Origin: Candidatus Saccharimonadota bacterium
GTDB lineage: Bacteria > Patescibacteriota > Saccharimonadia > Saccharimonadales > Saccharimonadaceae
Assembly (NCBI GenBank): GCA_002421785.1
Contig: DIRZ01000003.1
Span: 180,001-212,000, forward strand
Direction of reading: 5' to 3'
DNA length: 32,000 bases
In this document: one piece after another, positions 278 to 24,542 of the stretch
Layout: each line of letters opens with the position of its first letter
How positions within the stretch are numbered: position 1 is the first letter of the stretch
Notes under the pieces: generated by a model
Seen by the model: only the letters and a program-made list of their open reading frames with translations
Database searches by the model: none
What the model was told of the DNA's origin: nothing
Translations under genes and position numbers: made by a program

Positions 278-1770
278 ATATGTAACTCCTCTGCCTTATA
301 CCATTCCGGCGCTTCTGATAGGTATCCTTCTATATCTTCTTTGCCGAGTAAACCTGCTTGAGCGCCAAGTTTCTGTACCACGCTCATACTGTTTATCGGT
401 GCCCACGTAAGTGCTGTCGCTACGGTTTCGCCCAGTGCCAGCGCGGCCACAATCGTACTTGCAAATGCGTCCCCGGCCCCAGTTCGATCGATCGGCGGCG
501 CGGGGTCAGGATAATTTGGCACTTTGTATAACCTGCCGTCATACGACGCATAGGAGCCTTCTGGTCCATCGGTAATAACGACCACTTCTGGACCTACTGC
601 GTGCAGCGCGTCAGCCAGGGCGCGCACGTCATCATAGGATTGGCCGGTTACATCTACCGCTTCTTCACGGTTCATCACAACGATATGCGATCTCTCATAA
701 ACGCGTTTTAGCTTATCGACTCCCCATTTAAAGTGGAATGTTCCTGGTTGAAATGCAAGTTTGACTTCTGGATGCACTTCGAGAAATGCGAGCATGTCTT
801 CGTGAAGCTGCCAACTGTCCGCGCTAATTAGCGATAGGTATATCCAGTCAGGCTTGGTAGCAGGTTCAATCCAACGATAATCATACGCTTCATTTTTCAC
901 AAGAATTGTGCGGTCTGCTCCATATCGTAAAACGTAGTAAGTATTGCTAGGCGTATCCGGCTGCTTAACAACCGGTGTCACGTCAACCTGCTCGCTGGTA
1001 AGATAGCTAATGGAGTCATCGGCGACCTTGTCTGTCCCAAGCCAACTCATCATGCCAACCCGCAGCCCTAAGCGGGCACATGACACACCAGCATTAGGCG
1101 ACGGCCCCACGCTCGTAACAGTATCAACACGTTCATACGGTGGCTTACTGCCGAATGGAACACTCAGTCTTTTACTGCCGTCTGCATCAGTATCGATTCG
1201 TGCTTCGCTTTCCAGTAGCTTAATGAATACATCAGTAAAAATGTCACCCACGCATAGAACATATGGCCGCAGGTCGCTCGTGTTAACTTGGAGCTTTTTT
1301 TCGTGATACTCATCAAGACTACAACGATCGAGCCCCGCTTCGCTGACAACTTCGTCAATCACGCCCTCATCATCACCATCTGCAGCAACGTATCGGGCGG
1401 TCAGTCCGTGCTGAATTTGGCATCGCATATGAGCAACAGTTCGCGAATCATAGGGTCGGGTCACGTTTTCTTTTACATCGTCATGGTTAAATGAAATGAT
1501 ACGACCACCAAACGAAAGACCAACGTCATCGGTATGGCTGAACAACACACCATTATCCGCCTGCGCTTCCAAGGCATGATACAGCTCTTGTTCAGTTGTG
1601 TCTGCTGGATTCAGGCCAATTTGACGCATCACATCATGCGCACGTGCAGTGATGTCACCGATATAGGCAACATCGATACCCTGATTCCGCGTCATAGACT
1701 CAAGCTGTCGCATCGCCGCACTAAACATCGGCTCTTTTGCGTTGAGTAACTGCTGAAGATACCTTGCCAC
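274..1770 (-). CDS. PfkB-family carbohydrate/nucleoside kinase with an unrecognised ~170-aa N-terminal extension
   Basis: 498-aa ORF. The C-terminal ~320 aa parallel the neighbouring 324-aa PfkB kinase and carry the PfkB signature 'DRTGAGDAFAS'. The GTG start at 1770 has GGGAGG about 9 nt upstream. I recognise no motif in the N-terminal ~170 aa. Confidence 0.75.
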   Translation of the reverse strand: MARYLQQLLNAKEPMFSAAMRQLESMTRNQGIDVAYIGDITARAHDVMRQIGLNPADTTEQELYHALEAQADNGVLFSHTDDVGLSFGGRIISFNHDDVKENVTRPYDSRTVAHMRCQIQHGLTARYVAADGDDEGVIDEVVSEAGLDRCSLDEYHEKKLQVNTSDLRPYVLCVGDIFTDVFIKLLESEARIDTDADGSKRLSVPFGSKPPYERVDTVTSVGPSPNAGVSCARLGLRVGMMSWLGTDKVADDSISYLTSEQVDVTPVVKQPDTPSNTYYVLRYGADRTILVKNEAYDYRWIEPATKPDWIYLSLISADSWQLHEDMLAFLEVHPEVKLAFQPGTFHFKWGVDKLKRVYERSHIVVMNREEAVDVTGQSYDDVRALADALHAVGPEVVVITDGPEGSYASYDGRLYKVPNYPDPAPPIDRTGAGDAFASTIVAALALGETVATALTWAPINSMSVVQKLGAQAGLLGKEDIEGYLSEAPEWYKAEELHI

Positions 1771-1771
1771 T

Positions 1772-2746
1772 TTATGCCTCCCTCGCGTTAACCGGTCGTT
1801 CGTGAATCGGCATTTCGTGCAGCTTCACACCACGATGAAGAATACCGTCCTTTGCGCCAATTTTTGTGACCACGCTCGTGCTGTTCGCACTCGCGAATAT
1901 GATGGACTCTTTGAGCGATTTGCCCTGTGACCACTGACTCAAAAAACCGCTGGCAAAAGCGTCGCCAGCCCCAGTCCGATCAATCACCGGAACATCTTCA
2001 TACATCCCGGCACGAACCAGCGTCTTACCGTCGGTTGCTACGACCCCATTTGGACCATCGCTAACTATTGCAACCGGGACATAATGCAGTGCGTGCAGAG
2101 CAAGTTCTTCGAGTGTTTCTCCAGCGACAAGTAACTGCATTTCTTCTTTGTTCGTACAAAGTACATCAACACTCTCGAGAAGCGCCTTCAGCTTATCGGG
2201 CTCGGCTAGTTCGGGACCAGCGGGATTGAGCATAACCTTCACCTGGTGTTTCTCGGCTTCATCAACAATATGCCGCAATAATGGTAGACCCCCGTCGCCA
2301 AGTGAAGTCGGATATATCCAGTCAGCGGAATGTATCGCGGCGTAATCTAGCTTTGGGTGCTTGCCACCCGCATAGCCGCGGTGATTTAAAATCGTCCGTT
2401 CGCCATTCGTTGCAATAAGAATAACTGAGTAGCCCGACTGATAGCGCTCGTCCTGTACGACCGCAGAGGTGTCGACACCTTCTGCATCCAGTGCGTGGAG
2501 AATAGTTTCGCTGGCCGGATCATGGCCAAGTGCCCACATATAGCTTGCTTGGAGCCCCTGGCGAGCAAAGGTGACTGCTACATTCGTCGCGTTACCACCT
2601 GTACTAAACGTTACATCTTCCACTTCCATTTTTAATCCCAGTGGCAAATGCGTGAACATATGCGTACCTTCTTTATGAGGGTCAAATTCATCGCTCTTCA
2701 GAAACACATCTTGCGTGGCTTTGCCAATCGAAAGAATCTTGACCAC
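1772..2746 (-). CDS. PfkB-family carbohydrate/nucleoside kinase (ribokinase-like fold)
   Basis: 324 aa. Motifs seen are N-terminal 'ILSIGKATQDVF', 'TGGNATNVA' and C-terminal 'DRTGAGDAFASGF'. The GTG start shares one base with the aldolase stop (TAGTG at 2744-2748). Confidence 0.8.
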   Translation of the reverse strand: MVKILSIGKATQDVFLKSDEFDPHKEGTHMFTHLPLGLKMEVEDVTFSTGGNATNVAVTFARQGLQASYMWALGHDPASETILHALDAEGVDTSAVVQDERYQSGYSVILIATNGERTILNHRGYAGGKHPKLDYAAIHSADWIYPTSLGDGGLPLLRHIVDEAEKHQVKVMLNPAGPELAEPDKLKALLESVDVLCTNKEEMQLLVAGETLEELALHALHYVPVAIVSDGPNGVVATDGKTLVRAGMYEDVPVIDRTGAGDAFASGFLSQWSQGKSLKESIIFASANSTSVVTKIGAKDGILHRGVKLHEMPIHERPVNAREA

Positions 2747-3787: not shown

Positions 3788-4783
3788 TTAAAAACCCTGA
3801 TGATACTTCGGTTTTGTTTCTACGTGATTCTTCACTTGTTCAGCAATACCGGGACCATCGAATCCAAAATAGGTAATGAGCTCAAGCGGTGCGCCACTTT
3901 CACCGTAGCGATCCGGCATTCCAATTCGAAGTAGTGGTGTGGGCAATTCATCACCAAGGAGCTCTGCGACAGCCCCGCCCAGGCCGCCAGCTTTCTGCGC
4001 ATCCTCAGCCGTCACGGCCCGCCCCGTCTTTCGCACGCTTTCCAGTATCGTTTCGGTATCCAGTGGTTTGATCGTAGGCGCATGAACAACCTCGGCGCTC
4101 ACCCCTTGCTGGCTCAAAAGCTCTGCGGCTTTCAGCGCATACGGCGTGAGAATACCCGTACTAATAATTGTCACGTCTTCACCCTCTCGGAGCACATATG
4201 CTTTGCCGATTTCGAACGGCGAATCCGCGGTACTAAAAATTGGCGTTTTCTCACGAGCGATGCGTAAATAACACGCGCTTGGATATTCAGCAATTGCCAT
4301 AGTGGCCTTTTCTGCCTCGACACTATCACCCGGGCAAACAACAACCATGTTTGGCATAACACGCATTAAAGCGATATCTTCGAGCATTTGATGCGTCGCC
4401 CCATCTGGCCCCACTGTCACGCCTGCATGGGCACCTACCATCTTTACAGGTTGCTCGTTGAGAGCGGTTGTCGTTTTTATTTGTTCCCAGTTGCGCCCGG
4501 GGCTAAAGGCGGCATAGCTTGCTGCAAAAGGAATTTTGCCGGCACGTGCAAGGCCACTGGCAATAATGGGCAAGTTTTGCTCAGCGATACCTACCTCGAT
4601 ATATCGGTCAGGAAATGCTTCGGCAAACAAGTGCATCTGCACGCTCTCTACTAAATCAGCACATAACCCAACAACATTAGGGTACCTCTCGCCGGCCGCC
4701 TTCAGGCCACGGCCAAACCCTGCGCGAGTTGGCTCGACGTCGGGCGTATCGGTATATAGGTTCTCGTTCAGTGAATAAGTCAT
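3788..4783 (-). CDS. Transketolase, C-terminal subunit (pyrimidine-binding plus C-terminal domains)
   Basis: 331 aa with 'GIAEQN', 'FAASYAAF' and 'VGPDGATHQMLEDIALMR', typical of the split transketolase B subunit. The start overlaps the stop of the N-terminal subunit (TAATG). Confidence 0.9.
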   Translation of the reverse strand: MTYSLNENLYTDTPDVEPTRAGFGRGLKAAGERYPNVVGLCADLVESVQMHLFAEAFPDRYIEVGIAEQNLPIIASGLARAGKIPFAASYAAFSPGRNWEQIKTTTALNEQPVKMVGAHAGVTVGPDGATHQMLEDIALMRVMPNMVVVCPGDSVEAEKATMAIAEYPSACYLRIAREKTPIFSTADSPFEIGKAYVLREGEDVTIISTGILTPYALKAAELLSQQGVSAEVVHAPTIKPLDTETILESVRKTGRAVTAEDAQKAGGLGGAVAELLGDELPTPLLRIGMPDRYGESGAPLELITYFGFDGPGIAEQVKNHVETKPKYHQGF

Positions 4784-5643
4784 TATTGGTGCTCCGCGCG
4801 GATTTTACCGCCCATAGTTCGTAGTTCGTGCAGCGCCTGTTTTGCCTGCTCTTTGTTTGGCGGTATTCCGTGCCACTTGTAGTTATACTCCATAAAGTCG
4901 ATGTTCTTCCCGGGGATAGTATGCGTAATGATAACACTCGGACGATTCTCGATTGCCTTGGCCATACCAACGGCATCAATAATACTATCGATGTTGTGAC
5001 CATCGATCTCTTGCACATGCCAGCCAAATGATTCCCATTTTGCGCGCAAATTCTCCAGAGGCATAACATCTTCGGTGTTGCCGTCAATCTGAATATTGTT
5101 GCGGTCGACAAATACAACCAGCTGGCTCAACTTGTACTTGGCAGCGAACATCATCGATTCCCAGTTATTTCCTTCATCAAGCTCACCATCGCCCGTAACA
5201 ACGTAAACCCAGCGGTGTGGGTGGTGGTCGAGGTACTGCAGAGCGTATGCATACCCCGCTCCTTGGCCAATACCACACCCAAGTGGCCCGCTTGTATTTT
5301 CAAGCCCAGGCAGTTTCGTCCGTTCAGGGTGGCCCTGAAGACGGCTGCCCAGTTTGCGCAGCGTCAGCAACTCTTGCTTATCAAAATACCCCCGTTCAGC
5401 CATGGCCGCATATTGCACAGGGACGCAGTGACCATTACTCATCAGGAATATATCGCGCTGTGGATCATCGACGTTCTGAGGATCAACGTTCATAATTCGG
5501 AAATATAGCGCGGTCACAAGGTCGGCTAAGCCGAGAGGTCCCGCACTATGCCCACTACCTGCGTGCTCAAGCATGGTAATAATGCTTTTGCGAACTTCGT
5601 TTGCCTTTTGCTCAAGTTGCGTAATTGTTAATTGCCCACTCAT
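4783..5643 (-). CDS. Transketolase, N-terminal (ThDP-binding) subunit
   Basis: 286 aa with 'GSGHSAGPLG', 'SNGH' and the ThDP-binding motif 'VTGDGELDEGNNWE'. Confidence 0.9.
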   Translation of the reverse strand: MSGQLTITQLEQKANEVRKSIITMLEHAGSGHSAGPLGLADLVTALYFRIMNVDPQNVDDPQRDIFLMSNGHCVPVQYAAMAERGYFDKQELLTLRKLGSRLQGHPERTKLPGLENTSGPLGCGIGQGAGYAYALQYLDHHPHRWVYVVTGDGELDEGNNWESMMFAAKYKLSQLVVFVDRNNIQIDGNTEDVMPLENLRAKWESFGWHVQEIDGHNIDSIIDAVGMAKAIENRPSVIITHTIPGKNIDFMEYNYKWHGIPPNKEQAKQALHELRTMGGKIRAEHQ

Positions 5644-7342: not shown

Positions 7343-8089
7343 TTATGGATAGTGAAAGCCTGGATTCGGCGGACACGGGCCGTCCTGAATGCCAATTGAG
7401 CTTGGTACAGCATGATATATAATGTCGGCAAACTTAGCCGCTCGCCCCTCAACACAAAAATCACTCGCCGCACTCCCTACCGTTACAGAAACAGGTGCGG
7501 GCAAAGGACTACCGTCTTTTGGGACTGCTATCGGGAATTCGCCACCCTGTTCAACGAACTTTGCGATGATATCCGCCTGAGCAACATTGCACGCAGCCCC
7601 ACATGTGAGAACAAAGTCAGTCTGAGAAAATGCAGGCCCGTCTATAACAACGTTGGACGAAATCGTCCCCTTAACATGGATATTATTCCCACTGTAAATA
7701 CACGCGTTGTTGTATGTGGTCGCTCCGTCTGTGATTGGCATAAATCCATTGCAGGAGTTGAGAAAAAGCTGCGCATTCTGATCTGGCGTGAGGTTATCAT
7801 ATACAGGGGTTTCTGGCGCATTTGTATACAGCGCGACGGCCACCGAGAGTGGTGGCGCGTACTCGGTACCCGCTATATTCGAAGGATAGGACTTGTCGAT
7901 AACATAATACAGCTGCAGGCTCTTTAGTGCATCTGCGACCGTCTGACGAGTCTGCGTGTCGGCAGCACGACGCTGCACACCGTTATATGTCACAAGTATA
8001 ACCGCAGCCAGTGCAGCTAGCACTGCAACAATGATGATGATTTCGACGAGCGTGAACCCCTTTCGATGCCACCGGAGAAGTACACGCAT
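7343..8089 (-). CDS. Type IV pilin-like protein (prepilin N-terminal cleavage/methylation motif)
   Basis: 248 aa. The leader 'MRVLLRWHRKG|FTLVEIIIIVAVLAALAAVILV' is the class III signal G/FTLxE plus hydrophobic helix. The C-terminal globular part has 6 Cys. Confidence 0.85.
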   Translation of the reverse strand: MRVLLRWHRKGFTLVEIIIIVAVLAALAAVILVTYNGVQRRAADTQTRQTVADALKSLQLYYVIDKSYPSNIAGTEYAPPLSVAVALYTNAPETPVYDNLTPDQNAQLFLNSCNGFMPITDGATTYNNACIYSGNNIHVKGTISSNVVIDGPAFSQTDFVLTCGAACNVAQADIIAKFVEQGGEFPIAVPKDGSPLPAPVSVTVGSAASDFCVEGRAAKFADIIYHAVPSSIGIQDGPCPPNPGFHYP

Positions 8090-17848: not shown

Positions 17849-19024
17849 CTACTGAATCTTGCGGTGTGAAGCAGGCTTTTTTACCGGTTGCGGCCCTGCA
17901 CCCGAGCGAGCATGCGCACTACTCGAGAATGCCTCTTGAATCTCGCGCAACACGACGCTATCGCTTGCCGTCAGCTTACCCAGTAGATATTGGTACACGA
18001 CGTCATCCCGTATAATCATAAACCGTGTCGCTTCTTCATTTACTTCGCATGAAACAATCGGCACCTTTAGTTCTTCTTCGAGGTTCAACATGTCATCGAA
18101 GCTCTTCACGGGCACAAGCCGCTTGCCGCTGAGGTCTGGAAGTTCCTTGGCTCGAATGATAATCCCGTCATGATAGCGATATATACGGTCAAGCTCAGCG
18201 CGGTAGGGTGTTTTGAATATTCGACGGCGCTGGCCTACTATCACCAAGCATAGTCCTACGGCCGCCAGCACTCCTGTAGCAATAAGTCCATACTGAACCA
18301 TTGTTGCGTGTTGCGAAACCACAGTCGTTGAAAGTACCTGCTTTACGTCATCTTTGTCGTACTTGATTGCCAGCTGATATATCTGCTGTGTTAACGGAAT
18401 AGTAATGGTCGAGGTACGCACGTCATTAAAGGCAACTCCATCGATTTCACCCCGGGCGCGAACCGTGAACGTCACAATAGCTTCTCCATTAACCGGCACT
18501 TGAAGTGTCGAGCGGTAATCGTCTATCATTTTTTTGTACTCTTCAAACGGAATTGTTACCGAATCAGAAATCAGAATATTACCCGCGCCTGCTGTTTTAG
18601 CCTTGGGGCTCACAAGCTGAATTTGCTTCAACCATACATTCGCAGCTTCATCTTCTTTTCCTGTCAATGTATACGTACCTCGAACGGTGCTTTTCACGTC
18701 GTAGGTGTAGCTAACATTCGTCGCATTCGCGCTCTGGAATGTGTATCGAAACGTCCCGGCGATGGAGTCAGTAAGGCTAGCAAGATACGCCGTATCGGTT
18801 TGTGCGGGCCCATTATCATAAAAGCTATTGTCTCGATACCCAACCGCGCCCTTTAGAGTCTGCTCGATTCGGTAGTTAGAGTCAGCACTGTCAGCGGTTG
18901 CTTTATAGCGTTGAGGTATCAGCCAAATAGCGAAGCCCGCGGCAACGAGCATACACAAAACACCAACAGTCGTTACTGTCCGCGACCGTCGCTCATATCG
19001 TTCTTTTTCGTATGTTGTCGTCAC
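17849..19024 (-). CDS. Two-TM membrane protein with an extracytoplasmic beta-rich domain and a cytoplasmic C-terminal domain (DUF5305-like topology)
   Basis: 391 aa. TM1 is 'VGVLCMLVAAGFAIWLI'. A ~215-aa T/S-rich ectodomain follows, then TM2 'YGLIATGVLAAVGLCLVIV', then a ~120-aa charged tail. It is the last gene of the SipW-like operon, and its GTG start lies 10 nt after the peptidase stop. The DUF5305 assignment comes from remembered topology and gene context only. Confidence 0.55.
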   Translation of the reverse strand: MTTTYEKERYERRSRTVTTVGVLCMLVAAGFAIWLIPQRYKATADSADSNYRIEQTLKGAVGYRDNSFYDNGPAQTDTAYLASLTDSIAGTFRYTFQSANATNVSYTYDVKSTVRGTYTLTGKEDEAANVWLKQIQLVSPKAKTAGAGNILISDSVTIPFEEYKKMIDDYRSTLQVPVNGEAIVTFTVRARGEIDGVAFNDVRTSTITIPLTQQIYQLAIKYDKDDVKQVLSTTVVSQHATMVQYGLIATGVLAAVGLCLVIVGQRRRIFKTPYRAELDRIYRYHDGIIIRAKELPDLSGKRLVPVKSFDDMLNLEEELKVPIVSCEVNEEATRFMIIRDDVVYQYLLGKLTASDSVVLREIQEAFSSSAHARSGAGPQPVKKPASHRKIQ

Positions 19025-19033
19025 TTCCTCACC

Positions 19034-20203
19034 CTACTTTGTTATTTCCCGTAACCACACTGTTGGATACCCGACAAATGGGATATACCCTCGCACCACG
19101 CCAATTATTTGCCGAGAATGTACGATAGGGTCTTCGGTGGGGCTATTATCTCCCTTAGTCACAAATACCCGTTCGCCGTTACCGGAAACATCCCTGTCGA
19201 TAGCAATCACGCGGTGCGTCATCATCTTATCTGGTGCTTCGTATTGTACAATATCGCCTACGCTTATGTCCATCGGCGCGACTTTCTGGACGACCACCAT
19301 CGACCCACGGCTATACACTGGTTGCATGCTATTCGACATTACTGCCATCGGCCGGTACGCAAACAAACCTGTCATAAACAACACTAACGCGACAATAACG
19401 GAATACATCATGACATCAAAAGCCCGGCGTGGATGCATATGGCGTCGTGCGTGCGCCGTCGGTGCATGCTGTGTCATTCTATCAATCGCCAAATATACAG
19501 CAACAGCAAGCAACATCATCGAAGCGCCAATCAAATACCAATCTTGTTTGGGAATAATTGGCGGAAGAATCGTCACCGCAACGACGCCCAATCGGTACAT
19601 AAGCTGCGACGGTAAACCCCCGGCAATAGCAAGATATGTCAAAAGGAAGCTTGCCACAAGTGACGGCAACACGTCGACAAACACCATCTTAATAGCCCGC
19701 TCCGCAGTGGTAATATCGCCAAGCTGCGCAAGGTTCATCAACGGTAGCGCGAAAACGATAGAGACAACCACGCCAAACCACACCGCGTTACGACGCCCCA
19801 CAAGGAGCAGTAATTGATGCCGCGTATATTCCATTGCCACCGCTACGCTTCCGTAAGCAAAAATGTTGAGTACAACCCCCTTCGCCCCCGCAACGAGTGA
19901 ATTGTGAGTGAATGTCAAGAAGACACCTGTCAAAAAATACAATACGAACCAAATTGCAATCACACTCCCAATCACGATAACCTTATCGCCACGATGACGC
20001 GACCGATCCTTTAGTCCGGAAGTCATGGAGCGTGCAACCAATGCAGTCCCTATAGCCAGCAACGGCTCAACAGCGTACATCGTCAAGGATACATCGATCG
20101 GTTTCATCCACTTGAGAGCCATGACCATTATCGCAACAAGCACGACAAGGCCAACTAGCGCCCATACCGCGGGCTTAACGCTCAGTAATCTCCTATACCA
20201 CAC
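19034..20203 (-). CDS. Archaeal/ER-type (SipW-like, S26B) signal peptidase I fused to a ~280-aa N-terminal polytopic membrane domain
   Basis: 389 aa. The C-terminal ~105 aa read 'VMSNSMQPVYSRGSMVVVQK..GDIVQY..MTHRVIAI..FVTKGDNSPTEDP..IIGVV'. This matches the SipW/Sec11 pattern: Ser nucleophile in SxSM, His in THRV rather than a catalytic Lys, and the KGDNxxxxD box. The N-terminal part has about 8 hydrophobic helices and no motif I recognise. The GTG start overlaps the upstream stop (TAGTG). Confidence 0.72.
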   Translation of the reverse strand: MWYRRLLSVKPAVWALVGLVVLVAIMVMALKWMKPIDVSLTMYAVEPLLAIGTALVARSMTSGLKDRSRHRGDKVIVIGSVIAIWFVLYFLTGVFLTFTHNSLVAGAKGVVLNIFAYGSVAVAMEYTRHQLLLLVGRRNAVWFGVVVSIVFALPLMNLAQLGDITTAERAIKMVFVDVLPSLVASFLLTYLAIAGGLPSQLMYRLGVVAVTILPPIIPKQDWYLIGASMMLLAVAVYLAIDRMTQHAPTAHARRHMHPRRAFDVMMYSVIVALVLFMTGLFAYRPMAVMSNSMQPVYSRGSMVVVQKVAPMDISVGDIVQYEAPDKMMTHRVIAIDRDVSGNGERVFVTKGDNSPTEDPIVHSRQIIGVVRGYIPFVGYPTVWLREITK

Positions 20204-21003
20204 TATGGCATTCCCTCTATCACATAGTTGGTCAGGACCCAGCTGGTACTGGTGGACCCCAGCGATGGCACAAACTGAAAGGTGCCACTCTTCGCGACAC
20301 TCGTCTTGCTTGTAATGATGATTTGAGAAGCCGTGGTCGTATAGTTCACAGTGGTCGGCATGGTTCGTACAGAGTTGGCAGAGCCCCAGTTAGCGGTGAT
20401 GCGCCAGCTACCCACATTAAATGCAGAGTTATTTGTGACGACGATTGTGTAGGGCCAATAGTAGTTACGCGCCACTTTTGTTCTTGCACCACGCGTCGCC
20501 GTCATCGTGAGGCCTGGAATCGCTTGATAGGTCGATGCATACAAACCAGAAATCTTCAGGTTCTGCAAAACCGACCTTTGTAGTGGAGCGGTAAACGTCA
20601 CCGTAAACGTCGTCTGGCCCCCAGGTGCCAATGTGCCGTTGCCCACGGTGCTGTTTGCCGTCACAACCATCCCCGCCTGAGCGCAGGTGACATTTGTGCA
20701 AACATGACTGGTCGTGCCGGTTGGTAAATCGTAACCCACCTGCCAACTGCCAATGCTACTTGTTCCACCGTTTGTTACCGTAAATAGCAACGAATAATTC
20801 CAACTCCCGCCAGACTGGGTAACCGTCTTGCTATACCGTACCGATAAGTTCTGGGAGCTTGTATAGGTAACGCCGCTCGTGCTCGCAGTCACCGTTAATT
20901 TTTGCGTAAAAAGAGCATACCCCGTGCTCATAAGAGCAAGGGGTATTGCGAGTATCATCACTATATCGCGAATTACGACTTTATGTCTGCGGCTGCGAAA
21001 CAC
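20203..21003 (-). CDS. Secreted protein with a SipW-cognate-type signal peptide and two CBM2-like beta-sandwich repeats
   Basis: 266 aa. The signal region is 'RSRRHK-VVIRDIVMILAIPLALMSTGYA|LFTQKL'. The two repeats resemble the GGF..V.VTNTG...I.GW.V...  layout: 'WNYSLLFTVTNGGTSSIGSWQVGYDLP...LAPGGQTTFTVTF' and 'YYWPYTIVVTNNSAFNVGSWRITANW...AKSGTFQF'. The protein is S/T-rich and has no LPXTG. The GTG start at 21003 is uncertain. Confidence 0.55.
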   Translation of the reverse strand: MFRSRRHKVVIRDIVMILAIPLALMSTGYALFTQKLTVTASTSGVTYTSSQNLSVRYSKTVTQSGGSWNYSLLFTVTNGGTSSIGSWQVGYDLPTGTTSHVCTNVTCAQAGMVVTANSTVGNGTLAPGGQTTFTVTFTAPLQRSVLQNLKISGLYASTYQAIPGLTMTATRGARTKVARNYYWPYTIVVTNNSAFNVGSWRITANWGSANSVRTMPTTVNYTTTASQIIITSKTSVAKSGTFQFVPSLGSTSTSWVLTNYVIEGMP

Positions 21004-21035
21004 GGGTGATTCCTACTTTCCACCGCTCGTGGTCA

Positions 21036-21530
21036 TTATGTGTTCTGGACGTAGTTGAAGTCAATCGTTGCGTTCTTGGTAGCACCGCTTGTACCAGTTG
21101 CGGCCGCGTCCCAGGTAACAGTCACGACTGCAGTCGCCGTACCGCCCGCCGCCAAAGTATCGTTCACCGCAACACCACTTACCGAATACGTAATGTACGC
21201 AGGTGCTGATGCGTTAAGCGTTGTTAGGTCTGTGAGTGTCGAGAGCTTTGCAGGAATTGTTCCTGTATTCTCGATAACAACGTTATAGGTTGCTGTTGCG
21301 CCAGGATACTGCAGGTTCGTGCTGAACGATGCAGTTGTCGCAGTGAATGACGGTACGACTGCTTCGGTTGTACCGGTCGACGAGGTATTTGTTATGCCTG
21401 TTATTTCGACGCTCCAATCACCAGTTGCGGTACCTGTACCGTTGATCTGTAGTGATTGCGAGAAGGCTGCATACGCGACAGAAGCAAGCACCACCACAGC
21501 TAGCGCGGCAACCAGAATTTTACTTTTCAT
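21036..21530 (-). CDS. Small secreted TasA/camelysin-like protein (SipW-cognate-type signal peptide)
   Basis: 164 aa. The signal 'MKSKILVAALAVVVLASVAYA|AFSQS' mirrors the TasA junction '...GGGTWA|AFND'. The core 'YPGATATYNVVIENTGTIPAKL' matches the TasA/camelysin 'PGD..t..F.v.N.Gtl..k' strand pair. The protein is A/T/G-rich with no Cys. The SD AAAGGAAG lies upstream, with an extended -10 TGCTATAAC at 21565-21573 (-). Confidence 0.6.
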   Translation of the reverse strand: MKSKILVAALAVVVLASVAYAAFSQSLQINGTGTATGDWSVEITGITNTSSTGTTEAVVPSFTATTASFSTNLQYPGATATYNVVIENTGTIPAKLSTLTDLTTLNASAPAYITYSVSGVAVNDTLAAGGTATAVVTVTWDAAATGTSGATKNATIDFNYVQNT

Positions 21531-21606
21531 ATACCTTATCTTCCTTTGTGTTAGTGGTTATATAGTTATAGCATACACCACTTACAGCGGAAGTCCAATA
21601 TATTGT

Positions 21607-23214: not shown

Positions 23215-23691
23215 TCAAGGAACTAATGGTTTGTGAAGGTCAATCACTACTGAGTTCTCGCTCCCACTACGGTCAGGATAGTACCCAAGTCGTTCATAAA
23301 ATTCGAGTGCCGACTCACCAATAACACGCAGTCGAATTGAGCGCATATTTTGAATTTTACCGATTCTTTCAATAGTCTGCATGAGGGCAGATCCGACGCC
23401 AGAGCCACGGTAACGTGGGTCGACAGCAATACTCTGCACCCAAAAATCTTGCACGCCTTCATGCACAACAGCAACCCCACTCGGCATTGCGCCAACCGCA
23501 GGCTTGGCGCTTAGATTAAATCTTGCTTCATCCATGCTCTGAAGCAAGTGCGCGGCCCGTCCAACAGTTTTAAGTGGTCCACCATATATGGCAGGTTCGA
23601 TTATGCGTAGCGCGTGCAATGTATCCGGCGGAATGTCGTCAAACTGCGCGACGAAGCGAGGGTCCGGAATAGAGAGCTCACTGATAACCAC
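23215..23691 (-). CDS. GNAT-family N-acetyltransferase
   Basis: 158 aa with the acetyl-CoA motif A 'IAVDPRYRGSGVGSALMQTIE' and 'FYERLGY'. The GTG start overlaps the upstream stop (TAGTG at 23689-23693). Confidence 0.8.
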   Translation of the reverse strand: MVISELSIPDPRFVAQFDDIPPDTLHALRIIEPAIYGGPLKTVGRAAHLLQSMDEARFNLSAKPAVGAMPSGVAVVHEGVQDFWVQSIAVDPRYRGSGVGSALMQTIERIGKIQNMRSIRLRVIGESALEFYERLGYYPDRSGSENSVVIDLHKPLVP

Positions 23692-24542
23692 TACTGACTC
23701 ACTGCGCCATTAAGCACCCGGGCGCTTGCATCCATGTAAGCCCTCACCGCGTCACTATCCAGCCTTCCGGCGTGTTCTTGCGCATCGAGGGGAACATGAA
23801 GCCGGCCTTCCGCGTCCCAGCTGATATCTGGAAACTCTTGAACAATCGGCGGCAATTCCTCATCGACGACCATCGCACTCAAACCGCCCGCAAGACCAAA
23901 GTTAGTCCCACGAGCCTCCAGCTCGGTGTCGTTATACGCTGCGTCCAAAAACGGTAACAGCGCCTGGGCGTCAAGTCGCTTACCAGTGCCGTGAGAAGCA
24001 TCAAACAGCACGTAATCAAGGCTTGGCAATCGACGAAGCTGGTCAAGCACGACTTCCGCACCCTGCGCCATGGCTGGCCCATGACACTGCATAATAACGC
24101 CGTAGCCACGCCTACGTATTCGTGAAATAACACTCCCCCACTCGCGTGACGCCGGGTCGTGAAACGGTAACATATCAAACTGCACATGCGTCAGCCATCT
24201 TTCACCCCGAGCCATAACCCTGTCTACAAATTGTTCGGGATAGTCTGGCTTTCGTTGTATAGACTCCGGATCTAAATACATTTGGGCCACACCCATTTCG
24301 CCCTCATAAAATACATCACTGTCCATAAGGGCATTGCGAAATTCATCGTGCCCAACGGGGTACCAATTGCGGCCATATTTATTAGGTCGGTCGAGCCACT
24401 GCGTATTATGCACTGCCTTTACTCCCATCAGTAGCCCACGGCGGCGCAACACTTCATGAGACCGGCGCACATCTTCATACGCAAACTGCTGTTTACACTC
24501 AACCAAACCACTTATACCAACATAAGGCCTGCTTCGATTCAT
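23691..24542 (-). CDS. TIM-barrel protein resembling phosphoribosylanthranilate isomerase (TrpF-like), GC-rich
   Basis: 283 aa. 'YVGISGL' aligns with KICGIT. 'YVLFDASHGTGKRLDAQALLPFL' aligns with LLDxxxGGSGxxFDWSLL. 'FGLAGGLSAMVV' aligns with xLAGGLxPENV. 'ISWDAEGRL' aligns with VDVSSGVE. The similarity was judged by eye only. Confidence 0.45.
   Translation of the reverse strand: MNRSRPYVGISGLVECKQQFAYEDVRRSHEVLRRRGLLMGVKAVHNTQWLDRPNKYGRNWYPVGHDEFRNALMDSDVFYEGEMGVAQMYLDPESIQRKPDYPEQFVDRVMARGERWLTHVQFDMLPFHDPASREWGSVISRIRRRGYGVIMQCHGPAMAQGAEVVLDQLRRLPSLDYVLFDASHGTGKRLDAQALLPFLDAAYNDTELEARGTNFGLAGGLSAMVVDEELPPIVQEFPDISWDAEGRLHVPLDAQEHAGRLDSDAVRAYMDASARVLNGAVSQ

Follow-up and report, generated by a model that had tools for sequence, protein, structure and literature searches.

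Gene arrangement and conservation of the cassette

The window analysed here, i.e. the whole stretch of 32,000 nt of DNA from a Saccharibacteria-like genome, carries on its minus strand a cassette of four co-oriented genes (P1 to P4), which encode proteins of 164, 266, 389 and 391 aa and are separated by gaps of 32, -1 and 9 nt. A check of the open reading frames bore out an earlier note on this DNA, which had described four tightly packed genes of these sizes and spacings.

21531-21606, minus strand: region upstream of P1, 76 nt, containing a ribosome-binding site of AAGGA type and TGcTATAAC as a candidate extended -10 element
21036-21530, minus strand: P1 ORF, 164 aa, ATG start
20203-21003, minus strand: P2 ORF, 266 aa, GTG start
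19034-20203, minus strand: P3 ORF, 389 aa, GTG start
17849-19024, minus strand: P4 ORF, 391 aa, GTG start

The cassette had also been said to have its own extended -10 promoter and SD sequence. Both AAGGA and TGcTATAAC were seen, but a consensus promoter scan gave sites at or below the level of shuffled sequence and did not list the candidate upstream of P1. The cassette contains neither an anchor gene of the LPXTG, sortase or SLH kind nor a regulator gene.

Around the P1 homologues (48 loci, two phyla), only the P1 to P4 families were conserved, and the flanking genes varied. Of the 38 Saccharibacteria loci nearly all kept the order P1-P4, and the same families were present, rearranged, at 10 gut Bacillota loci. 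The invariant core consisted of P1, P3 and P4; P2 was the least conserved member, being absent or replaced in several Bacillota loci.

The signal peptidase P3 and the DUF5305 protein P4

P3 consists of a membrane domain followed by a peptidase domain, and the adjoining gene encodes P4.

19421-20203, minus strand: P3 multi-pass membrane domain at the N-terminus, of about 260 aa and with about nine hydrophobic cores
19034-19420, minus strand: P3 C-terminal ER/archaeal/SipW-type signal peptidase I, with S292 (SNSM), H330 (THR) and D352 (GDN)
17849-19024, minus strand: P4, a DUF5305 protein that crosses the membrane twice (TM segments: residues 18-36 and 246-264), with an external domain between the two segments and a cytoplasmic C-terminal domain

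The C-terminus of P3 matched NCBIfam TIGR02228 (archaeal-type signal peptidase I) with 81.3 bits (cutoff 51.85). The closest PDB relatives of the peptidase, searched with the family profile, were human SEC11A/C (E 1.7e-17), whereas bacterial Ser/Lys enzymes gave values of 0.017 or worse. The catalytic residues S292, H330 and D352 were invariant in an alignment across two phyla. These results sustain the assignment of P3 as a SipW-type Ser/His signal peptidase and disfavour a Ser/Lys type.

The membrane domain, estimated from family-averaged hydropathy to have about nine TM helices, had no match in Pfam, NCBIfam or the PDB. Its polar residues N113, E125, R128, K172 and W222 were invariant in the alignment across two phyla. 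Its counterpart is the multi-TM SPase I described at abpX loci (bioRxiv 10.64898/2026.01.04.697558). This domain was missing from the earlier description of P3.

The whole of the Pfam profile PF17231 (DUF5305; positions 1-217 of 217) was matched by P4 with 82.4 bits (cutoff 29), and together with the two hydrophobic segments of P4 this agrees with the DUF5305-like topology that had been proposed. P4 adjoins P3 in 44 of the 48 loci, and is presumed to be an accessory subunit of the P3 peptidase, a role suggested for DUF5305 proteins in work on the abpX and tafi loci.

The secreted proteins P1 and P2

The features of the two exported proteins are as follows; a slash marks the signal-peptide junction here and below.

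21036-21530, minus strand: P1 precursor, candidate major fibre subunit, AbpX-like, single-domain, all-beta
21468-21530, minus strand: residues 1-21 of P1, MKSKILVAALAVVVLASVAYA, Sec-type signal peptide, predicted cleavage after Y20-A21
21432-21467, minus strand: residues 1-12 of mature P1, AFSQSLQINGTG, predicted to be a donor strand and aligned to the AbpX donor strand QWSETLSLSATI
20203-21003, minus strand: P2, minor component, with P1-class signal, junction and first strand, then two CBM2-like beta-sandwich domains
20878-20913, minus strand: N-terminal strand of P2, LFTQKLTVTAST, predicted to become free on cleavage, with the junction motif, low-confidence and unstructured in the monomer model, aligned to the P1 strand

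The composition of P1 (A/T/G/S/N/V = 69%) and its single, N-terminal hydrophobic segment fit the description of an A/T/G-rich secreted-type protein. The predicted mature form has 143 aa and a pI of 4.05, with only 5.6% Asp+Glu. Homologues of P1 (n=253, about 165 aa) were for the most part from Saccharibacteria, and the P1 domain was also found at the head of many large adhesin-like proteins. In an alignment of 45 homologues A19, Y20 and A21 were invariant. The first strand, with conserved positions F+2, L+6, I/V+8 and G+10, ranked among the best-conserved P1 segments and is common to P1 and P2. The junctions VAYA/AFSQ (P1) and GYA/LFTQ (P2) were both present as claimed, and in a six-frame translation of the whole window a regular expression for the junction class matched only these two places. 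The core motif of P1, PG..Y.V.V.N.G, is generic: Ig-like domains that do not polymerise, among them DUF11, CARDB and choice-of-anchor D, contain it too, and P1 matched these weakly.

AbpX is a donor-strand bundling pilin of Pyrodictium abyssi, with a solved structure and a place in the TasA superfamily, in which W2-I12 was seen experimentally to be the donor strand (bioRxiv 10.64898/2026.01.04.697558; PDB 9sj2, 9rhp). AbpX was the best PDB sequence match for both P1 profiles. Comparison of the P1 and AbpX families by hhalign gave 96.9% (E 1.5e-10, 154 columns), and 93.3% (E 2.6e-7) when the mature parts alone were used, while reversed and column-shuffled control profiles all gave 0.4% or less. 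At the level of sequence profiles, these comparisons show the P1 family and AbpX to be homologues. Over the junction and first strand, YA/AFSQSLQI of P1 faces YA/QWSETLSL of AbpX, and P1 VAYA/AFSQSLQINGTG aligns with AbpX LTYA/QWSETLSLSATI (AbpX junction LTYA/QW), suggesting that mature residues 1-12 of P1 act as a donor strand. The calcium-binding Glu at mature position 4 of AbpX is replaced by Gln, Thr or Ser in the P1 family, and the acidic content of P1 is 5.6% compared with 14-17% in four of five AbpX-family sequences. P1 lacks these calcium features of AbpX, and its assembly trigger may therefore differ.

The P2 protein (mature pI about 10) matched Pfam CBM_2 with 30.3 bits (GA 24), and its CBM2-like domains span residues of about 53-155 and 165-265. 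In the AF2 model (pLDDT 85) residues 26-43 were disordered. Foldseek matched this model to the CBM2 structures 6qfs, 2rtt and 3ndy (TMt 0.68-0.79), and to the CBM2 domain of Streptomyces Chi18aC with 32% identity. A homologue of P2 is named 'cellulose binding domain-containing protein' at NCBI. The first 30 residues of P2 are homologous to P1 (hhalign 95%), in keeping with the P1-type junction claimed for this 266-aa protein. Residues Y29, A30, Q34 and L36 were invariant in the family, and the SRR of the n-region was not conserved. Judged from its sequence, P2 is a TapA-like arrangement, with a P1-type signal, junction and first strand on a different body.

A probable surface-fibre system and its alternatives

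Taken together, the data indicate that the cassette probably encodes an AbpX-type (TasA-superfamily) surface-fibre system. P1 and P2 would be exported via Sec with a distinctive signal peptide ending in Y-A, after which P3 would cut as a dedicated peptidase. Its Ser292/His330/Asp352 domain would lie on the outer face, tethered to the membrane domain with its nine or so TM helices, and P4 (DUF5305) would assist. Cleavage would liberate the conserved N-terminal strand A-F-S-Q-x-L-x-I-N-G, which could then enter the beta-sandwich of the next P1 (donor-strand complementation), giving a thin fibre of 14-kDa P1 subunits without a separate chaperone. As P2 has the same strand but CBM2-like domains and no pilin body, it would join at one end only. 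It would nucleate or cap the fibre, as TapA does for TasA, and tie it to polysaccharide of the cell's own wall or of a host surface. The fibre may have a role in attachment. Nucleation of TasA has been explained in the literature by the donor-strand-like N-terminus of TapA, and in the related haloarchaeal tafi system pilins are no longer processed and fibres do not form once the cluster's peptidase has been deleted (PMC11821415, PMC12337348).

It is unlikely that P3 and P4 instead process non-polymerising surface proteins, with P1 as an Ig-like protein and P2 as a CBM2 glycan binder, monomeric on the envelope or released. This would fit the weak matches of P1 to the non-fibre Ig families choice-of-anchor D, DUF11 and HYDIN/VesB Ig (Pfam/NCBIfam profiles), and the AF2 monomer of P1 (pLDDT 84.4, all-beta), which is a closed, self-complemented sandwich and for which Foldseek found no solved fibre subunit in the PDB. 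TasA monomers are also self-complemented, however, and the homology to AbpX spans the whole mature P1, donor strand included. The strong conservation of the N-terminal strand, its presence in both P1 and P2, and a locus architecture like that of known fibre loci likewise argue for polymerisation. Even less probable is capture of polysaccharide for nutrients, in which the tandem-CBM2 P2 would bind cellulose, chitin or xylan and P1 would be a scaffold or spacer. The CBM_2 score above the gathering threshold, the similarity to cellulose- and chitin-binding CBM2 structures and the NCBI name agree with such a function, but no glycoside hydrolase or sugar transporter was linked to the cassette in the 48 loci, and P2 lies outside the invariant core.

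The earlier note had likened P1 to TasA/camelysin and compared the cassette with the tapA-sipW-tasA operon of Bacillus (B. subtilis TasA fibres: PDB 8AUR), with which it shares a major subunit, a donor-strand-mimicking minor protein and a dedicated Ser/His peptidase. The family membership did not hold: neither P1 nor P2 matched Pfam Peptidase_M73, NF046066 or TIGR04088 (the SipW-dependent signal-peptide model), which a TasA positive control did match. The P1 profile reached only 15% probability against TasA (hhalign), and TasA was not returned by Foldseek. True orthology to tapA-sipW-tasA, with P1 as a Peptidase_M73 protein, was largely refuted by these family-model tests and is very improbable. 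Apart from the common peptidase type, it could draw on LKPGDKLTKDFQFENNGSLAIK, the place in TasA where the P1 profile aligned best locally, and on one weak match to Peptidase_M73 (E 2e-4) among 61 long P1-family proteins. P1 and TasA also have the local PG...N.G motif in common. Mature P1 is much smaller than TasA (143 vs 234 aa), P3 carries the extra membrane domain, P2 does not have the TapA fold, and the three-gene Bacillus operon, according to the literature, has no DUF5305 counterpart. The idea of a TasA-like fibre operon, with a dedicated Ser/His peptidase, a DUF5305 partner, a small subunit and a second protein of like junction, was itself supported by the synteny, the ER/SipW-type peptidase and the homology of P1 to AbpX; with the TasA/camelysin claims failing, the proper reference is therefore an AbpX-type locus. 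Membership in the Pam pilus system of Candidatus Mycosynbacter amalyticus is scarcely credible. Pam is a different donor-strand pilus, reported in 2026 for CPR bacteria (bioRxiv 10.64898/2026.03.03.709456), and the phylum, a Saccharimonadia host and thin extracellular filaments of Ig-like subunits formed by strand exchange would be common to both. Pam pilins, however, are two-domain proteins of 39-55 kDa that depend on chaperones, and the published description sets Pam apart by its operon content and neighbourhood. The membrane-anchored PapD-like chaperones, RbmA-like anchor and ATP synthase neighbours were absent from the cassette and the window, and Pam is described without a dedicated peptidase or DUF5305.

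Among haloarchaeal systems, Tafi (TafA/E, TafD, TafG; PMC11821415, PMC12337348) similarly has a dedicated SPase I and DUF5305 beside donor-strand pilins. Its pilins mostly carry Tat signals, whereas those of P1 and P2 are Sec-type, and TafD has four TM helices and a second external domain in place of the larger N-terminal block of P3.

At abpX loci the pilin is encoded together with minor/tip proteins, DUF5305 and an SPase I that has ten TM helices (bioRxiv 10.64898/2026.01.04.697558), which is the composition found here. Both also have the Y-A junction, and in both the amphipathic strand that comes next carries an aromatic or hydrophobic residue at +2. The present cassette differs in its tandem CBM2-like partner, in its lower content of acidic residues (about 5% vs about 15%), in lacking an SLH/LPXTG anchor and a regulator gene, and in the TM number of P3, for which simple hydropathy gave about nine compared with the stated ten. 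It also differs in its host, since the abpX loci listed in the 2026 preprint are from Thermoproteota, Bacillota and Chloroflexota (bioRxiv 10.64898/2026.01.04.697558). A literature search found no description of an AbpX-type cassette in Saccharibacteria, consistent with the remark in the earlier note that TasA-type fibres are not known to have been described in this lineage. We regard the cassette as a further case of the AbpX-type kit.

Organization and conservation of the cassette

The four ORFs P1 to P4 are arranged on the minus strand of the window, separated by 32, -1 and 9 nt, and both the ORFs and the gaps were exactly those described in the earlier note.

Features of the window: the four cassette ORFs and a split transketolase
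21036-21530, minus strand: ORF of P1, 164 aa, candidate major fibre subunit
20203-21003, minus strand: ORF of P2, 266 aa, minor protein with a P1-type N-terminus
19034-20203, minus strand: ORF of P3, 389 aa, multi-TM domain and signal peptidase
17849-19024, minus strand: ORF of P4, 391 aa, DUF5305 protein
4783-5643, minus strand: N-terminal TPP-binding half of transketolase
3788-4783, minus strand: pyrimidine-binding and C-terminal half of transketolase

The GC content (0.48–0.51) does not change between the cassette and the DNA on either side. The genes around it have housekeeping functions and encode PheS/PheT, an adenine phosphoribosyltransferase-like protein, an HtpX-type M48 protease, GAPDH and RelA/SpoT, as well as NDH-2-like and thioredoxin-reductase-like flavoproteins and a transketolase, which is split over two adjacent genes (3788-5643, minus strand). 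Two further ORFs on the minus strand, of 248 aa (7343-8089) and 283 aa (23691-24542), had no Pfam match at E<=1e-5; the latter lies directly upstream of P1 in three loci (L001-L003).

The 76 nt upstream of P1 contain an AAGGA ribosome-binding site and a TGcTATAAC element, so that the sites on which a promoter and Shine-Dalgarno sequence of the cassette's own had been proposed are present. A generic promoter and terminator scan gave counts no higher than in shuffled sequences, and the TGcTATAAC site upstream of P1 was absent from its listing. The promoter is therefore only a plausible reading of this site.

One genome per GTDB species was scanned with patterns derived from P1, which yielded 45 loci (Saccharibacteria, 35; gut Bacillota MAGs, 10), and three more, among them the complete 1.01-Mb genome CP064995.1, were obtained by a close-homologue look-up, giving 48. 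Where enough sequence was available, the Saccharibacteria loci share the gene order P1(x1-2)-P2-P3-P4 on a single strand, except for a few loci in which P3 or P4 is split or shortened, and the fusion of the multi-TM domain to the peptidase is found in all but the few with a split or shortened P3. The P1 proteins of the Bacillota loci (L039-L048, e.g. Clostridium sp. CAG:571, Bacilli bacterium RGIG9051 and Lactobacillales SIG196) were 43–52% identical to P1. These loci contain the same families, with a P2-like protein in about six of ten and sometimes a second P1 between P3 and P4. P1, P3 and P4 are thus common to two lineages with small genomes, Saccharibacteria and these gut Bacillota MAGs.

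All-against-all clustering of the ORFs showed that exactly four families are widely common to the 48 loci, namely P1 (48), P3 (46), P4 (44) and P2 (43), and the cassette proved syntenic across the Saccharibacteria loci, a point which the earlier note had proposed to check. Other recurrent ORF families were either antisense shadow ORFs or sporadic neighbours present in seven loci at most, and no anchor, sortase, chaperone or regulator gene was conserved with the cassette among the 48 loci. The flanking genes of the window were not conserved past its nearest relatives; the 283-aa ORF and HtpX, which adjoin the cassette, were kept in the closest relatives only, and not with the cassette elsewhere. 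In 15 of the 38 Saccharibacteria loci (L004, L007, L010-L015, L019-L021, L029, L034, L035 and L038) P1 is present as two paralogues in tandem, which may represent a major and a minor subunit; the window has a single P1.

Family relationships of P1 and P2

The earlier note had assigned P1 and P2 to TasA/camelysin proteins with a SipW-type signal peptide, an assignment that the family models did not bear out. Neither protein matched Peptidase_M73 at E<=1, nor in a control run of the TasA/SipW-substrate models at E<=10, and nothing was matched among the TasA, BsaA and TIGR04088/04089/04090 models of Pfam and NCBIfam. The TasA precursor, included as a control, scored 513.8 bits with NF046066 and 38 bits with TIGR04088 (cutoff 19), and weakly, below the cutoffs, with TIGR04089/04090, indicating that the TasA-family models work. 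Like P1 and P2, AbpX (a donor-strand bundling pilin of Pyrodictium abyssi) and the Bacillota homologues of P1 had no match to NF046066, TIGR04088 or TIGR04089/04090. The core of P1 had also been read as the camelysin/TasA strand motif. The best local match of the P1 profile on the TasA sequence did fall on this motif, but the overall probability was 15% and not significant.

The close homologues of P1 number 253 and are about 165 aa long; all those with a source name are 'hypothetical proteins' of Candidatus Saccharibacteria or Saccharimonas. A profile search over 1.8 billion cluster representatives (clusters at 50% identity) detected 4,756 P1-related clusters at E<=1e-3, of which 1,527 also passed E<=1e-10. 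Small proteins are frequent among the members, and many others are proteins of 300–1,074 aa, in which an N-terminal P1 domain is followed by adhesin-type modules (BspA-type LRR, Listeria-Bacteroides repeat, DUF285, DUF6273 and PT-HINT). Among the distant members very few (two) carried a source name, and both came from 'Bacilli bacterium' MAGs. The P1 family is thus very large and unannotated, and many of its members head big adhesin-like proteins of uncultured gut Bacilli.

The first PDB sequences found with either P1 profile were those of AbpX only (9sj2 and 9rhp), with marginal E-values of 0.05–0.17 and a striking common core, AYPGAEVNVTFTLENVGTIPA in P1 and QYPGATATYNVVIENTGTIPA in AbpX. 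When the P1 family was compared profile-to-profile with an alignment of the AbpX precursor and four relatives (five sequences), hhalign gave a probability of 96.9% (E 1.5e-10, 154 columns), and without the signal peptides 93.3% (E 2.6e-7, 123 columns), while one reversed and eight column-shuffled controls remained at or below 0.4%. Judged from these profile comparisons, the candidate major subunit P1 is homologous to AbpX, a donor-strand pilin of solved structure. AbpX has been placed in the TasA superfamily, and bacterial homologues have been reported in Bacillota and Chloroflexota (bioRxiv 10.64898/2026.01.04.697558).

A Sec signal followed by an amphipathic N-terminal strand was found in both proteins (YA/AFSQSLQI in P1 and YA/QWSETLSL in AbpX, with the predicted cleavage site marked by a slash). 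At position +2 of the mature protein, 44 of 45 close homologues have F, and 73 of 78 sequences of the wider family have L or F; the other fixed positions are Y-2, A-1, L+6, I/V+8 and G+10, with +2 being hydrophobic or aromatic in general. AbpX-like proteins are very acidic, and an acidic residue at mature position 4 binds calcium (bioRxiv 10.64898/2026.01.04.697558), whereas the P1 family has Gln, Thr or Ser at this position. Asp and Glu together make up 5.6% of mature P1 (median of the Saccharibacteria homologues 4.8%), compared with 14–17% in the AbpX-family sequences, except for one of the five, which has 9.5%. Both calcium-related features of AbpX, the acidic +4 residue and the high acidity of the subunit, are therefore lacking in P1.

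Most of the 21 homologues of P2 are annotated as CBM_2, and Y29, A30, Q34, L36 and two cysteines are invariant among them. P2 is homologous to P1 over its first 30–31 aligned residues (hhalign 95%), a stretch that comprises signal peptide, junction and first strand, and the junction motif had no match outside P1 and P2 when the window was translated in all six frames. Residues 71-153 of P2 matched Pfam CBM_2 with 30.3 bits (GA 24). The AF2 model (pLDDT 85) has two beta-sandwich domains and an unstructured segment 26-43, which contains the junction and strand. With Foldseek the domains were superimposed on CBM2 structures (6qfs, TMt 0.79; 3ndy, 0.78; 2rtt, 0.68), and the last of these, the chitin-binding domain of Streptomyces coelicolor Chi18aC, was 32% identical over 101 columns. 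P2 is CBM2-like according to both family match and modelled fold, and is predicted to bind glycans. Modules of the CBM2 type are characteristic of Actinobacteria, and Saccharibacteria usually live on hosts from this group; the likeness to Chi18aC could reflect either acquisition from the host or binding of a host glycan.

The arrangement of P2 resembles the one proposed for the Bacillus minor protein TapA, in which a donor-strand-like N-terminus is joined to a complete fold; TapA donates this N-terminus to start TasA fibres. The n-region of P2 (residues 1-15; 20959-21003, minus strand), MFRSRRHKVVIRD, contains an S-R-R resembling a twin-arginine motif. Export by the Tat pathway is unlikely, since the RR pair varies among the P2 homologues.

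The signal peptidase P3 and the DUF5305 protein P4

Residues 270-383 of P3 scored 81.3 bits with TIGR02228, the model of archaeal-type signal peptidase I (cutoff 51.85), and 51 bits with the Bacillus SipW equivalog model, which has a cutoff of 190. The SipW-type Ser/His peptidase proposed in the earlier note was thereby supported as a type, but not as an orthologue of SipW. The closest relatives of solved structure are human SEC11A and SEC11C (E 8e-11 with the single sequence, 1.7e-17 with the family profile), compared with E 0.017 or worse for bacterial Ser/Lys signal peptidases. The SNSM, THR and GDN motifs of P3 align with SGSM, VHR and GDN of SEC11A/C, and S292, H330 and D352 are the same in all of 16 homologues, which represent two phyla. 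By these sequence criteria P3 is a signal peptidase I of the ER type, i.e. Ser/His and not Ser/Lys. One Saccharimonadales MAG (L029) has, some 4 kb upstream of its cassette, a second and short peptidase ORF of the S26 type (206 aa; 1335-1955, minus strand), which shows weak similarity to the P3 catalytic domain (E 3e-12) and is possibly the housekeeping signal peptidase.

The N-terminal ~260 residues of P3 (19421-20203, minus strand), on which the earlier note is silent, contain about nine hydrophobic cores in the family-averaged hydropathy. No relative of this membrane domain was found in Pfam, NCBIfam or the PDB. N113, E125, R128, K172 and W222 are invariant from Saccharibacteria to Bacillota, and the conservation of such polar residues suggests that the domain has its own function, e.g. 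in substrate docking or as an assembly platform. A CPBP-like reading of the E..R motif was dropped, as the membrane part has no conserved His.

P4 matched Pfam DUF5305 (PF17231) over the whole profile with 82.4 bits and has two hydrophobic segments (18-36 and 246-264), in agreement with the two-TM, DUF5305-like topology ascribed to it before. It is kept beside P3 in 44 of the 48 loci. Besides the pilin, abpX loci typically contain genes for minor and tip subunits, for an SPase I that has ten TM helices and for an accessory protein of the DUF5305 family (bioRxiv 10.64898/2026.01.04.697558). P3, with its ~9 TM segments and ER-type peptidase, corresponds to this SPase I.

Proposed mechanism and relation to known fibre systems

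What was established directly in the current study is how the genes are arranged, to which families and catalytic types they belong, that P1 is homologous to AbpX and that the module is conserved. These results are probably best accounted for by a P1 fibre which is processed by P3 and P4, carries P2 at its end and is attached to glycan. P1 and P2 would leave the cell via Sec and would be cut after Y-A by P3 with the help of P4. The freed strand of P1 would then enter the next P1 subunit to form a thin fibre of defined polarity, and P2 would start or cap this fibre and tie it to glycan, from which a role in host attachment may follow. A precedent exists in the Tafi system (TafD/TafG), where deletion of the peptidase stops both pilin processing and fibre formation (PMC11821415, PMC12337348).

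The main rival explanation is that the cassette is a processing module for surface proteins that stay monomeric. The AF2 monomer of P1 (pLDDT 84.4, pTM 0.77) is all-beta, and its first mature strand folds back onto the sandwich, resembling self-complemented monomeric TasA. A Foldseek search with this model against the PDB returned weak matches only, the best being a self-complemented FimA variant (E 2.5e-3, TM 0.35), and TasA was not returned. The junction and donor strand of AbpX, LTYA/QWSETLSLSATI, were aligned onto VAYA/AFSQSLQINGTG of P1, and residues W2-I12 of AbpX are the donor strand seen by cryo-EM (bioRxiv 10.64898/2026.01.04.697558). A far more specific form of the polymerising-fibre proposal appears rather improbable. 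It holds that the cassette encodes a second and so far unrecognised surface organelle of Saccharimonadales, a chaperone-free and calcium-independent donor-strand fibre of the AbpX/TasA type with a tandem-CBM2 cap or anchor, in which the ~9-TM domain of P3, where E125 and R128 are invariant, would act as an assembly platform in the membrane and link cleavage to polymerisation, and which would contact wall glycans of the actinobacterial host.

The Pam pilus of CPR bacteria, reported in 2026, is set apart from P1 by its published description: Pam pilins have two domains and 39–55 kDa, and their operon, which includes membrane-anchored chaperones of the PapD-like kind, differs in content and in its surroundings (bioRxiv 10.64898/2026.03.03.709456), whereas mature P1 has 143 aa and one domain. 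Neither a two-domain pilin nor PapD-like chaperones were found in the cassette or the window, and no further conserved family accompanies P1-P4 in the 48 loci.

Systems of this kind are already known from the AbpX loci (January 2026 preprint), Tafi and TasA; the variant features of the cassette are the non-acidic subunit, the tandem-CBM2 partner and the absence of an anchor gene. In the literature on Saccharibacteria and other CPR bacteria no paper was found that links such a system to them, and on TasA fibres in Saccharibacteria nothing relevant was found, while on donor-strand fibres the unrelated Pam system was the only result. The AbpX preprint does not mention Saccharibacteria, Patescibacteria or CPR, and one supplementary file mentions neither of the first two (bioRxiv 10.64898/2026.01.04.697558).

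Among environmental Saccharimonadales the cassette is widespread. Because they live attached to other bacteria, surface appendages are central to the biology of Saccharibacteria, and type IV pili have been implicated in this lifestyle. The cassette represents a bacterial and genetically small example of the pairing of SPase I with DUF5305. If the proposed fibre is real, it would be a third fibre system in Saccharibacteria beside type IV and Pam pili, and a very compact one of only four genes.
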